Positions 10,118 through 18,951 of a DNA stretch of 43,953 nucleotides are shown here, in pieces. The position numbers were made by a program, and so were the translations under genes. The stretch is from an uncultured Campylobacter sp. (GTDB taxonomy: Bacteria; Campylobacterota; Campylobacteria; Campylobacterales; Campylobacteraceae): positions 1 to 43,953 of the forward strand of contig CAUQJW010000001.1 in assembly GCA_963518485.1 (NCBI GenBank), written 5' to 3'. Within the stretch, counting starts at the first letter, position 1. Every line of letters starts with the position of its first letter. The notes beneath the pieces were generated by a model that ran no database searches, was not told where the DNA came from, and saw nothing but the letters and a program-made list of their open reading frames with translations.

Positions 10118-10915
10118 TCAATCTAACTTATTTATATCTAAAATCCTGCGCCTAAAAAGGTCAAAATTCGCGTCGAGTTCGCTTTTGCGGTTTATAGAAA
10201 TTTCTATAAATTCCCGCTCTTTTTCGATGCCGATGAATTTTCTCCCGAGTAAATTCGCCGCGATACCCGTCGTCGAAGAGCCGGCAAATGGATCGCAAAT
10301 CACGCTATTTTCGTTGCTCGCCATCAATATAAGCCTTATCAAAAGAGAAAGTGGCTTTTGTGTAGGGTGCTTACCGCAAGCCTTTTCCCACGGCGCTATC
10401 GCAGGAAAGCTCCAAACGTCTTTCATTTGCTTATCGTCGTTTAGCTTTTTCATCAGTTCGTAGTTGAAAATATGCTTAAATTTCTCGCTTTTTCTTGCCC
10501 AGATTATTTGCTCGGTGCTATGCGTGAGGTATCGGCAGCTGAAATTCGGCGGCGGGTTGGTCTTTTGCCAAGTGATGATGTTTAAAATTTTATAGTCTAA
10601 CTTTTGCAAAGCGCGCCCGATCGAAAAAATATTGTGATACGTTCCGCTTATCATTACGCTACCGTTGTCCGTGAGCGTATCTTTGGCAAGAGCGAGCCAT
10701 TTAATATTAAATTTATCTATCTCGTCAATACCGCAACCCTTATCCCAATCGCCTTTATTTACGCTTACTATTTTTCCGCTTTGGATGCTAAGCCCGTCGT
10801 TTGAGAGAAAATACGGCGGATCGGCAAAAATGAGGTCAAACTCTCCCTTAAATTTAGGCAAAATTTCAAAACAATCGCCTTTAAAAAGCTTAAAATCATC
10901 GGATAGCTTAAACAT
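10118..10915 (-). CDS. Beta-class N6-adenine/N4-cytosine DNA methyltransferase, DpnA-like (likely GATC)
   Basis: FADPPY (motif IV) N-terminal; HPTQKP and DPFAGSSTTG (motif I) C-terminal; SVNKGDWD and WQKTNPPPN typical of DpnA; overlaps the REase stop. Confidence 0.9.
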   Translation of the reverse strand: MFKLSDDFKLFKGDCFEILPKFKGEFDLIFADPPYFLSNDGLSIQSGKIVSVNKGDWDKGCGIDEIDKFNIKWLALAKDTLTDNGSVMISGTYHNIFSIGRALQKLDYKILNIITWQKTNPPPNFSCRYLTHSTEQIIWARKSEKFKHIFNYELMKKLNDDKQMKDVWSFPAIAPWEKACGKHPTQKPLSLLIRLILMASNENSVICDPFAGSSTTGIAANLLGRKFIGIEKEREFIEISINRKSELDANFDLFRRRILDINKLD

Positions 10916-11729
10916 TTTTAAGCTCTTTTACGAAATAATGAAGCGTGGCAAGATTATAAATTTTAACGCTTTTGTAGGCCTCTTCAATCTTGTTTTTAGC
11001 GGCACGCCAGCCCTGTCCGTCCGTTATCCAGACAAATTTATATCCGCTGCAAAGCGAGATTTTTTGCGCTATTTCGATGTAAGATCTTGCGACTTCATTT
11101 AGCTTCGAGCCGCCCGTGCTGTAAAAATTCGCCTCTATCAGATATGTTACGCCGCCCGCGGCTATAACGAAATCAAAAATCTTTTGATCGCTTCCTAAAT
11201 TTAGAGCGAATTTTTTGCTACTAACTTCGGTTTGAAAGCCGATATTTTCACTCTTTTTAAGCAAAATAAAGAGTGCTTTGATACGCTAAATTTGCTCATT
11301 GCCGTTCGCGATAAAAACACGGACGCAGTCGCGGCAAGCGGCGAACTAACGAGGCTGAAAGCGTATTTTGAAAGTCCAGAAAAAATTTATGAGTTTTGCA
11401 AAGAAACGGGACTGGATAAAATTTTTATGGATGCAAAGATAAAAAATTTACACGATTACGTGTTTGGCGTGGAAGTCGGACTCGATACGAATGCGCGGAA
11501 AAATCGCGGGGGCGTAAATTTCTCGCAGACGGTTTCAGAGTATTTTAAGAGTGAAAATATCGGTTTTCAAATCTTTTGAACCGAGTAAAAAATCAAGCGT
11601 ATGAAGCTTGATAGAAACGGCTTTTAGATTTTCGCCGCATTTGTCAAAGTCGGTAAAGTAGCTAAGGCTCGCGTTCGTCTTTCTAAGCGAGCGTAAGAAA
11701 TCGCTAAAATTCGTTAAATTCGGTTCCAT
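10908..11729 (-). CDS. DpnII/MboI-family type II restriction endonuclease, interrupted here by an internal inversion (273 aa when re-inverted)
   Basis: N-part on minus (11535-11729), middle on plus (11232-11579, with FGVEVGLDTNARKNRGG), C-part on minus (10908-11264, with FDF..IEANFY..GGSKLNEVARSY..FVWITDGQGW); N- and C-parts share one frame; span 822 bp. Confidence 0.9.
11231..11255 (+). repeat. Left inverted repeat of invertible segment
   Basis: TTTGAAAGCCGATATTTTCACTCTT; reverse complement matches 11547-11571 at 24/25. Confidence 0.97.
11547..11571 (-). repeat. Right inverted repeat of invertible segment
   Basis: Plus strand AAGAGTGAAAATATCGGTTTTCAAA; single mismatch with the left repeat (11238 vs 11564). 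Confidence 0.97.
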
Positions 11730-11736
11730 AAAATCC

Positions 11737-11928
11737 CTATAATTTAGTTTTCGGCTCGTCCGCGATCGTCGTTTTAAAGTCTGTACAAACAAAGTCCTCC
11801 GCACTCAAAACGATCTCGCTGTTTTCGTAAGCCGCCCGGGCGATCTTACACGCTTCTTCTTTATTTTTCGCTTTAATAACGACTCTTCTCGCCGAGGTTT
11901 CGACGATCTCTACTTCAAATTCTTTCAT
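11737..11928 (-). CDS. DpnD/PcfM-like small protein
   Basis: FEVEIVET..R.V.IKA...EEA......Y.NSEIVLSAEDF matches the DpnD/PcfM family pattern as recalled; TAATG overlap with the upstream gene. Confidence 0.75.
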   Translation of the reverse strand: MKEFEVEIVETSARRVVIKAKNKEEACKIARAAYENSEIVLSAEDFVCTDFKTTIADEPKTKL

Positions 11929-12638
11929 TAAATTCCCATAGGAATTTTACCGATTTCGCTCTCTTTTTCGTACTGCTTTACGATATCTTCATAGCAAGCA
12001 AACTTTACCTTTTTGCTTATACTTTCATAAATACTATCTTTTAAAACGCCGTCAAATTGCTTTTTTCTTTGCAAATCGGCTACTATAAACATTTTGGCGT
12101 TAAAGTCTTGAAGTTCGTAAAATTTATTTAGAGAGTTTTTAAAGTCGGTACTGTGTTCTACCTCATAAAACGCATCGGGCAAATTTCTGCGATTAAACCA
12201 TATTGCATCGACGTTTTTTGCTTTATTTACGATGTTTTCATAGCTGAAGTTATAAATTTCTTTTAAAGTCGTTAATTCGGTTAATTTTTTATTAAGATAA
12301 AGCTTGTTTTTATCTTGCACCGGTACATATGTCTGAAAATTCCTTAGATTCCCAATCTCTACGATAATACCTTGATAATATGCGTGAGTAAAACTCGGAT
12401 TTATTCCGCTTTTACCATCGCCGGTTTTGGCCGTATTTTGCGCCTCAAAATCCTTAAGCCCCCAAAGCCCAGATCTAATTTTATAAAATTCTTTATTAGT
12501 TTGCACTATACCTCTTATACTAGCAAACGGAGTTTTCGTCCCCCATTTGCTAGTATCGGTCTTAGCGTAAAGTTGCGAGAAAGTAGCCATACCGCCGAGA
12601 TTAGCTAAAGCCTCTATAACGCATTGCTTTTGCGTCAT
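11928..12638 (-). CDS. N-terminal winged-HTH (HARE-HTH-like) + PD-(D/E)xK-type nuclease, putative restriction enzyme
   Basis: N-terminal EAL..LGG.A....LY...KTP.ASIR....GLWGL; C-terminal VDAIW...[10 protein letters not shown]-richer than flanks; ATGA overlap with carB. Confidence 0.65.
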
Positions 12639-17712: not shown

Positions 17713-18951
17713 TTATGCGCTTATTTTATTATTTTTTACGAAAATCGGCTTTTCTTTGCCGTTTACGACCTCTTTTGTTATCACCACGTCGTAGCCCGCA
17801 AGCTCCGGTAGCTCATACATTATGTCGGTCATCATCTCTTCCATTATGCTTCGCAGTCCCCTAGCTCCCGTTTTTCGCTCGATAGCTAGTCTCGCGACCT
17901 CTTTTAGAGCTTCGTCGTCAAATTTCAAATTTGCCCTATCTATCGCGAAAAGCTTTTGGTACTGCTTTAGTATCGCATTTTTAGGCTCGGTTAAAATTCT
18001 CACCATATCGTCCTGCGTGATTTTATTTAGCGTAGCGACCACGTGAAGTCTGCCGATTAGCTCCGGGATTAGTCCAAAATGCACCAAATCGTCGCTCTCA
18101 AGAGCGTCTAGCAAATTTTCCTTATCGTCTTTTGAGCGTTTATCTTGACCAAAGCCCAGCACGTTTTTGCCGATCCTGCGCTCGATGATATCGGCCAGGC
18201 CGTCAAACGCGCCGCCGCAGACGAAGAGGATATTTGATGTGTCTATCTGGATAAATTCCTGATTAGGGTGCTTTCTACCGCCTTTTGGAGGGATATTTAC
18301 GAGGCTACCCTCTATGATTTTTAAAAGCGCCTGCTGCACGCCCTCGCCGCTCACGTCGCGCGTGATCGAGCGGTTTTCGCTCATTCTGGCGATTTTATCT
18401 ATCTCATCGACGAAAACTATGCCCTGCTCGGCACGCTTTACGTCGCCGTCTGCAGCTTGTAAAAGGCGAGTTAGGATATTTTCCACATCTTCGCCGACGT
18501 AGCCGGCTTCCGTTAGACTCGTGGCGTCGCAGATAGCGATAGGCACGTCTAGAAATTTAGCCAGAGTCTGCGCCATCAGCGTCTTGCCGCTGCCGGTAGG
18601 GCCGACGAGTAAGATATTTGATTTTGAGATCTCCGTATCGTCCTCGATCTCGCCTTTTCTAAAAATCCTTTTGTAGTGGTTATAAACACCGACACTAAAG
18701 ACCTTTTTTGCTTTATCTTGACCGATGACGTAGTTATCTAGTACCGCCTTTAGCTCTTTTGGAGTTAAATTCGTATAGTCTTTGTCGGTTTTGTTTTCAG
18801 GACTTGATTCTTGCAGGCTCGTATCGCCGCAAATCATATTATAAGCGGCATTCACGCAGTATTCGCAGATGAAAGCCTTATTGTCCAAATCCGCAAAAAG
18901 GCGTCTATCGTTTGACTCCGTCTCGCCGCAAAAATTACATTTTCTCGCCAT
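17713..18951 (-). CDS. clpX: ATP-dependent Clp protease ATP-binding subunit ClpX
   Basis: Start at 18951 (MARKCNFCG zinc finger); [27 protein letters not shown]. Confidence 0.98.

Follow-up and report, generated by a model that had tools for sequence, protein, structure and literature searches.

Intragenic invertons of the premature-stop type have been described in which both repeats lie within one open reading frame (ORF), one of the two orientations truncates the product and the outcome is discussed as bet-hedging (Chanin et al., PMC10028968). We describe here a locus of the same layout, found in a stretch of 43,953 nucleotides from an uncultured Campylobacter sp. (contig CAUQJW010000001.1 of assembly GCA_963518485.1; this whole stretch is referred to below as the window), in which the middle of a DpnII-family Type II restriction endonuclease gene lies inverted between two 25-nucleotide (nt) repeats, here called arms, so that the gene is OFF as assembled. 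The arms recall a second known system, the XerH/difH resolution of chromosome dimers in Campylobacter and Helicobacter (PMC3325230, PMC5241119), with which they share the inner half-sites TGAAAA and TTTTCA and a 6-bp centre starting with C. Extra dif-like sites at which host Xer enzymes rearrange DNA segments are also known from the pdif modules of Acinetobacter plasmids (PMC9947245). Phase-variable restriction-modification (R-M) and related systems, among them Type I hsdS inversions, Type IIG, BREX and DISARM gene-pseudogene inversions, resemble the present locus in that defence is varied stochastically by programmed DNA change (Milman et al., PMC9881135, in whose reference list poly-G slippage in cj0031 also appears). 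Finally, Xer-type tyrosine recombinases acting at short sites switch gene expression in the Mollicutes (Xer1 at vpma of Mycoplasma agalactiae and XerC at mba of Ureaplasma). Our reading of the locus, to which we assign a probability of about 0.6, is that it holds a programmed, reversible ON/OFF switch within the coding sequence of the endonuclease, with XerH as the putative enzyme.

Inverted middle of the endonuclease gene

The interrupted endonuclease gene occupies positions 10908-11729 of the minus strand, and its middle 341 bp (11231-11571) are inverted. Piece A (11572..11729, minus strand) is fixed and comprises the ATG at 11729 and the N-terminal 52 codons; piece B (11256..11546) is the inner 291 bp of the invertible segment, contains the conserved GLDTNARKNR block and lies on the plus strand in the OFF state seen here; piece C (10908..11230, minus strand), again fixed, holds the C-terminal 107 codons and the stop. 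Between them stand arm 1 on the A side (11547..11571), which encodes (D)LKTDIFTL, and arm 2 on the C side (11231..11255), which encodes KSENIGFQ in the sense of the gene, the recombination sites thus falling within the ORF at codons 53-60 and 160-167. The arms are 25 nt each, complementary at 24 of 25 positions and separated by 291 nt, and the remaining inverted repeats of at least 25 nt in the 1.7-kb region reach a complementarity of at most 72%.

This arrangement had been proposed in an original prediction made from the letters of the sequence, and its coordinates, the 24/25 match of the repeats and the strand pattern of Pfam family PF04556 all agree. Piece A matches this profile on the minus strand, the middle ORF (11232-11579) on the plus strand and piece C on the minus strand, covering profile positions 1-54, 49-162 and 170-273 of 278, respectively, with E values from 1e-11 to 5e-34, which also upholds the DpnII-family identity. 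Because of the order and strands of these matches, the pieces are collinear only with the middle flipped. In the assembled orientation, reading from ATG 11729 gives 64 amino acids (aa; ...DIFTLKIL*) before a premature stop at 11535..11537 on the minus strand; when the segment was flipped in silico, an uninterrupted open frame of 273 aa was obtained. Both frames are as originally predicted, and so is the tolerance of the single arm mismatch, which reads ACC/GCC (Thr/Ala) one way and GGC/GGT (Gly/Gly) the other. In the mechanism that we propose, recombination between the two inverted sites in the ORF would flip the 341-bp middle; the ON state would give the 273-aa enzyme, and in the OFF state, that of the window, translation would end at codon 64.

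Both orientations among relatives

In the genus (142 genomes) a DNA search detected the gene in 41 relatives, and in the family (325 genomes) a protein search detected it in 80; pieces A, B and C were then placed on the fetched loci by tblastn, and piece A was found in all of these loci. The repeats are carried by 55 species-level Campylobacter genomes, that of the window included, which are species representatives of two genera of the Genome Taxonomy Database (GTDB). Among these carriers 36 are OFF and 11 ON, the remaining 8 being broken or unresolved at the arms; the OFF calls for three genomes of the second genus (G197, G205 and G234) are taken from the strand pattern of the protein search only. 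Since the same repeats occur at the same codons in 54 other genomes, the arms are beyond chance. A narrower count was confined to loci with all three pieces on one contig, window included, and excluded one chimeric contig (L010) as well as loci truncated at a contig end. Paired arms are found in 38 of these 51 loci (30 OFF and 8 ON); two loci have one damaged arm (a deletion in L015, a half-site change in L021) and are OFF; and the 11 loci without arms are all ON. In the ON relatives piece B lies on the gene's own strand. Each of 19 more distant orthologs (46-60% identity) was matched once, collinearly and free of stops, none of the 19 being split, and the arms were absent from all 11 of them that were fetched.

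The inversion in the window could in principle be an assembly artefact, its genome (G000) being a draft of 1.63 Mb in 177 contigs with a completeness of 91%. We find this scarcely credible, since the same arrangement is present in 35 other species-level genomes, and among the closed or nearly closed genomes G085, which is a single contig, is OFF, with G164, G060 and G093 ON. It is present, too, in independent contigs of three of the four Logan runs of relatives that were searched (X1, X3, X6 and X17), these three being collinear with the window, and in metagenome contigs, of which 8 of 11 have an OFF-type junction on the A side and 3 of 11 an ON-type junction.

To follow the history of switching, we built a tree of 47 coding sequences, orienting the OFF copies in silico and omitting four loci (L015, L018, L021 and L027). 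All arm-bearing copies fall into a single clade (support 98), itself nested among arm-less copies, and the tree requires at least 7 ON/OFF changes over 36 arm-bearing rows. One ON copy (L069) and one OFF copy (L073) have an identical coding sequence once oriented, and two further ON/OFF pairs (L008/L016 and L025/L035) differ by 0.005 or less. The original prediction had suggested looking for both orientations among orthologs; judged from these sequences, both exist in nature and appear to interconvert repeatedly.

The OFF copies are also under purifying selection. The median ratio of non-synonymous to synonymous change (dN/dS) was 0.12 over 276 OFF-OFF pairs and 0.136, with a maximum of 0.38, over 121 OFF-OFF pairs with dS between 0.05 and 2; the corresponding pN/pS was 0.15 inside two subclades seen only OFF, and all three pieces were constrained (0.23-0.35, at saturated pS). 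When the OFF copies with arms were flipped in silico, 27 of 30 gave a frame of 272-274 aa; of the other three, L023 reads past a lost stop, and L018 and L027 have further lesions.

These results bear on whether the gene is simply dead, that is, whether one ancient or sporadic inversion produced a pseudogene and the ON copies are ancestral. The excess of OFF over ON carriers, 36 to 11, would fit such a history, as would the extra lesions in three OFF copies (L015, L018 and L027) and the damaged half-site of L021. It is contradicted by the minimum of seven state changes on the tree and the ON/OFF pair of identical sequence, by dN/dS values of 0.12-0.15 in OFF lineages with constraint on every piece, and by the 27 copies that are intact when flipped, and we consider it highly improbable. 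A pseudogene had originally been envisaged should this orientation alone occur, beside intact orthologs lacking the repeats; what we found is that ON copies with the repeats exist. The comparison therefore supports a live switch rather than a one-off pseudogene, and the original proposal of a reversible intragenic inverton that toggles the endonuclease with the methylase kept draws its support from identical or near-identical ON and OFF relatives, from the purifying selection on OFF copies, from the conservation of the repeats at synonymous sites, from the lack of any split ortholog without repeats and from the full-length methylase beside both kinds of copy.

Some assemblies are broken at the arms. 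The genome G042 has three contigs (1.84 Mb, 54.9 kb and 301 bp) that break exactly there, the smallest being the inner segment alone; G096 shows the same pattern with a contig of 307 bp, and contigs of G136, G034 and G087 end at the arms. In G108, an assembly with 8% contamination, one contig has both an ON-type and an OFF-type junction. On this contig (C25, the chimeric locus L010) piece C occurs twice, inverted, on either side of piece B, which resembles a fold-back assembly joining the two types of junction.

Dif-like repeats and a candidate recombinase

Across the genomes the arms have a conserved core, TGAAA(A/G)-CNRATA-TTTTCA, made up of two 6-bp inverted half-sites and an asymmetric 6-bp spacer. 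In the window the core of arm 1 is TGAAAA-CCGATA-TTTTCA (11552-11569, read on the minus strand) and that of arm 2 is TGAAAG-CCGATA-TTTTCA (11233-11250, read on the plus strand). The published difH of Campylobacter species is ..TATTGAAAAC-TATAA-TTTTCAAAC.., in which positions 17-23 and 29-34 are highly conserved and positions 17-22 with 29-34 are always palindromic (Debowski et al., PMC3325230). Arm 1 agrees with difH at 13 of 13 highly conserved core positions, including the C at the first spacer position, and the half-sites of arm 2 show one change from TGAAAA and TTTTCA, at the base adjoining the spacer. The spacer itself differs, being CCGATA in the window and CTATAA in dif. The recognition of the repeats as dif-like core sites of XerH type is new here and goes beyond the original prediction; because of it, the switch gains a candidate enzyme.

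Such sites are rare in the genome of the window. The exact pattern TGAAAA-N6-TTTTCA occurs only twice in its 1.63 Mb, at arm 1 and at a site on contig C116 that lies in the published dif context and is taken, from its sequence, as the dif of this genome. In five near-complete carriers, inspected by eye, the pattern picks out one dif, the two arms and a few singletons whose spacers are unrelated. Among the 357 loose sites of a relaxed scan of G000, no inverted pair but the inverton shares a spacer within 5 kb; other XerH-type invertons were found neither by this relaxed scan of G000 nor by eye in the five near-complete carriers. The sole direct same-spacer pair in the relaxed scan lies on contig C8, where two direct 28-nt copies with the loose core TAAAAA-CTCAAA-TTTTAA lie at 18172 and 19766, 1594 bp apart.

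The arms show selection on the sites themselves, as distinct from the protein. Five spacer variants were seen (CCGATA, CAGATA, CTGATA, CGGATA and CAAATA), all of which begin with C, and the spacer is the same in both arms in 38 of 38 loci. Variation at the variable spacer base is silent in arm 1, where this base is the third of a Thr codon, whereas in arm 2 it changes the residue (Gly, Cys, Ser or Arg); since the same variation is silent in one arm and recoding in the other, the protein follows the DNA. Conservation at synonymous sites, a check suggested at the outset, was also found: among codons with an invariant residue, 6 of 9 in the arms are codon-invariant compared with 20 of 109 elsewhere (Fisher p 0.0036, within the clade), and arm-less orthologs vary at several of the arms' invariant residues.

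The place of the crossover can be read from ON and OFF sisters, in which the outer half-site and the A/G base keep with the flank and the inner half-site moves; the exchange thus occurs inside the interval C-N-R-A-T-A-T-T, within which the spacer lies. In 34 of 38 loci the arms differ at the A/G base, and in all of these it has remained with the outer flank; the other four have A in both arms. Bebel et al. (PMC5241119) report that XerH recognises the five innermost base pairs of either arm and touches the central region only through sparse backbone contacts. By our alignment the A/G mismatch, at the half-site base adjoining the spacer, falls outside the 5 bp so recognised. In the broken assembly of G034 (L048/L049) G adjoins the spacer in both arms, and the A-side arm would there encode Ala, not Thr.

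We then considered which enzyme might act at these sites. The genome of the window has five tyrosine-recombinase matches, XerH (355 aa, E 2e-94 to PDB 5jjv) among them, and no serine recombinase; XerH was present in every carrier examined. Carrier genomes have 5-12 tyrosine-recombinase matches each, and when the recombinases of six carriers were clustered, the XerH cluster alone was common to all six. No recombinase gene linked to the cassette was found among the 33 ORFs scanned (window positions 652-31358). Since XerH forms the only tyrosine-recombinase cluster shared by the six carriers, with no linked recombinase and no serine recombinase in G000, we rank it first among candidates for the invertase, at about even odds. 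XerH-dependent recombination of difH pairs at ectopic loci was seen by Debowski et al. (PMC3325230). A 432-aa integrase of G000 was also considered as the invertase and rejected, being absent from the carriers G016, G018 and G042.

The neighbouring genes offer other candidates. The cassette is encoded entirely on the minus strand in the order ORF236, DpnD-like gene, endonuclease and N6_N4 methyltransferase, and is flanked by an EamA transporter gene and carB. The DpnD/PcfM-like gene (63 aa; 11737..11928, minus strand; Pfam PF14207, E 1.5e-13) is directly upstream of the endonuclease, its end lying about 8 nt ahead of the endonuclease start. ORF236 (236 aa; 11928-12638, minus strand) belongs to no Pfam or NCBIfam family and has a weak PADLOC 'REase_II' match (PDLC03534, E 4e-9, residues 85-187). 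A DpnD-like homolog of 60-66 aa stands directly upstream of every arm-bearing copy with an upstream flank and is missing from that place in all 11 orthologs without arms; as the carriers constitute one clade, this association amounts to one event. ORF236 is found beside most carriers and is absent beside L004, L006, L008 and L012, and in the contigs of runs X1 and X3 its region is replaced by other sequence from position 11929.

Accordingly, the switch might be site-specific and driven by another enzyme, either an unrecognised invertase or the product of the DpnD-like gene or ORF236, acting as enzyme or essential cofactor. The constant company of the DpnD-like gene, upstream of every flanked copy with sites and of 0/11 orthologs without them, speaks for this, as does the fact that of the 5-12 tyrosine-recombinase matches per genome only a part was compared. 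On the other hand, XerH is the sole recombinase family common to the six carriers compared, the 432-aa integrase lacks a match in three carriers, the DpnD-like protein has 63 aa and no recombinase domain, ORF236 is missing beside four carriers, and the half-sites are those of difH. We regard another enzyme as distinctly unlikely.

Several points weigh against a programmed switch operated by XerH. The carrier counts are not independent, because the carriers are related to one another. The contig breaks at the arms and the chimera of G108, read as a trace of mixed orientation within cultures, are only indirect signs, and the Logan contigs have no joints, minority orientations being invisible in contigs; the share given for such contigs was 0.39 or less. 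One subclade of 7 loci with a weakened inner half-site (6 with TTTCCA and 1 with TTTCTA) has been seen only OFF. Regarding the enzyme, the clustering lacked 5 of the 12 matches of G060 and one match each from G016 (which has 7) and G042 (which has 8), with G000 itself 91% complete, and XerH of H. pylori requires septal FtsK (PMC5241119). The arms are 0.57-0.79 Mb from dif in four near-complete genomes (G085, G164, G060 and G093); two copies so far from dif imply that the arms are not a dif site, merely built like one. Substitution of the outer thymine of the left arm (T4 of Bebel et al., position 14 of Debowski et al.) practically abolished recombination at difH (PMC5241119), and the arms are without this thymine, the flank of arm 1 being ..AAGATT, as against ..GTATT in dif, with A at the T position by alignment. 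Furthermore, both half-sites of the arms resemble the weaker right arm of difH, and a right-arm palindrome recombined at 1.3% compared with 9.9% for the wild type (PMC5241119).

The missing T4 and the distance from dif would also suit a real switch in which the arms are plain short homology, inverted by a RecA-dependent or template-switch process, and the likeness to dif is incidental. The arms are indeed true inverted repeats of 16-25 nt, and a subclade with only 9 contiguous identical bases was seen only OFF, as a need for homology length predicts. Yet the likeness to dif is very specific, arm 1 being one of two exact sites in 1.63 Mb and dif the other; it is the half-sites and the shared spacer that are conserved, not repeat length; both states occur in a clade with only 16 identical bases; and the A/G base has never moved in 34 of 38 loci, for which chance gives roughly 0.08 (by our own arithmetic, assuming uniform crossover over 24 bases and 7 flips). 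We hold short homology to be unlikely, if the least so of the alternatives.

Returning to a switch driven by XerH, the enzyme would cut at the spacer borders and exchange strands there, and the spacer CNRATA, unlike CTATAA of dif, would keep the switch from recombining with dif. The missing outer thymine would be in keeping with rare and stochastic flipping, a weak site being suited to a low-rate switch. A fuller account, for which we would put the chances slightly below even, is that the essential chromosome-dimer resolvase XerH has been recruited as an invertase through sites within codons that mimic difH, with a private, co-evolving 6-bp spacer insulating them from dif, and that the DpnD-like protein may license XerH away from the septum. 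Phage-borne Xer activators offer a likeness for such a licensing role.

Methyltransferase, enzyme family and known systems

The partner DNA methyltransferase, of N6_N4 type (265 aa; 10118..10915, minus strand), is intact as originally predicted, with a full-length frame and matches to Pfam PF01555 (E 5e-58) and PADLOC MTase_II (E 3e-100), and its start codon overlaps the stop of the endonuclease. Where the locus of an ON or OFF copy extends as far as the methylase, the best match is nearly always full length and free of stops, the exceptions being L032, which stops at residue 236 of 265, and L037, which starts at residue 78. Because the methyltransferase is outside the segment and unaffected by it, the genome can stay protected and a return to ON would be safe; because it is also constant, the locus is not a phasevarion. 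The benefit may be a bet hedge between defence and DNA uptake: with the methylase left on, restriction could be dropped, allowing DNA uptake at lower cost, and safely regained.

Some further features of these two genes were noted. In L023 (genome G071), where the endonuclease stop is lost, the flipped frame runs for 537 aa into the methylase gene and may be a natural R-M fusion. A promoter-like pair, TTGAAG-16-TAAAAT (9/12), lies at 10960-10987 on the minus strand, inside the 3' end of the endonuclease and about 45 nt ahead of the start of the methylase, which it could supply with a separate transcript when the switch is OFF; it is a consensus match only, of a kind found by the scan no more often than in shuffles. 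Another promoter-like pair, at the OFF junction (TTGAAA-17-TAAAAT, 11570-11542), was rejected, with 6 sites compared with 5.8 in shuffles and the second hexamer missing in other clades. A 27-nt stretch in piece C (window 11190-11216) has exact or 96% matches at unrelated places in G089, G093 and G088.

With regard to the enzyme itself, a natural ON ortholog matches PADLOC REase_II (PDLC03548, E 3e-80, residues 6-271), and the family name suggests a GATC specificity. No NCBIfam family was obtained for the endonuclease, for the DpnD-like protein or for ORF236, and a sequence search for a relative of the endonuclease with a solved structure found none. The AlphaFold model of the ON ortholog has a mean pLDDT of 79 and a pTM of 0.64, and its best Foldseek matches, all with weak scores, are BstEII (E 2.9e-5, TM 0.41), the nuclease domains of Can2 and Card1, PspGI and Ecl18kI, which weakly suggest a PD-(D/E)XK fold. 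In this predicted model arm 1 would encode the start of a long helix (residues 54-75), and arm 2 the end of the helix at 140-160 and the turn before the strand at 166-170. In public databases the 273-aa form is named 'type II restriction endonuclease [Campylobacter gracilis]' or 'type-2 restriction enzyme MboI', and fragments of 64, 98, 115 and 118 aa carry names of the form 'DpnII family ... [Campylobacter showae / uncultured Campylobacter sp.]'. Since OFF genes are annotated as separate fragments, the restriction barriers of these oral and gut Campylobacter species are misjudged from assemblies.

If our reading holds, this would be a clear and evolutionarily conserved ON/OFF switch within the coding frame of a Type II restriction endonuclease of the classical kind, and intragenic invertons would gain a testable enzyme and a site grammar, dif-like half-sites with a matched private spacer, for which other genomes can be scanned. 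Phase variation in Campylobacterota usually works by poly-G slippage; the present locus suggests, if true, that in this phylum it can also be driven by a housekeeping Xer recombinase.

In the open-access literature, covered mostly as abstracts and without the supplements of surveys, we found no description of a Type II endonuclease switched ON and OFF by inversion within its ORF, or of difH-like inversion sites. The Xer systems of Mollicutes switch families of surface lipoproteins, whereas here the sites lie inside the ORF of an enzyme and no recombinase gene is linked to them. The Mollicutes systems move promoters or the 5' ends of genes, and Xer1 is encoded by a dedicated gene beside its locus. 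Passages on confirmed cases in the study of intragenic invertons by Chanin et al. (PMC10028968) include no restriction endonuclease and name no enzyme for them, and its main text, as distinct from its supplementary tables, mentions neither Campylobacter nor Xer; unlike those invertons, the element described here has recognisable dif-like cores, is conserved across two GTDB genera and has a protein sequence shaped by its sites. The phase-variable systems described by Milman et al. (PMC9881135) alter specificity or the methylase, and so the methylome, whereas in the present Type II system, with its separate subunits, the nuclease alone would be toggled ON and OFF. The pdif modules are plasmid-borne, carry resistance genes and use XerC/D sites (PMC9947245), and they are not a switch inside a coding sequence. 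Finally, XerH/difH acts at one site at the terminus and serves resolution (PMC3325230, PMC5241119), whereas here there are two inverted sites within a gene, with another spacer and with outer arm bases, the key thymine among them, that are not conserved, and the outcome is inversion. Premature-stop intragenic invertons, inversions that change R-M specificity and Xer inversions in Mollicutes are thus known already; what is new here is the presence of dif-like sites within the ORF of a Type II endonuclease.

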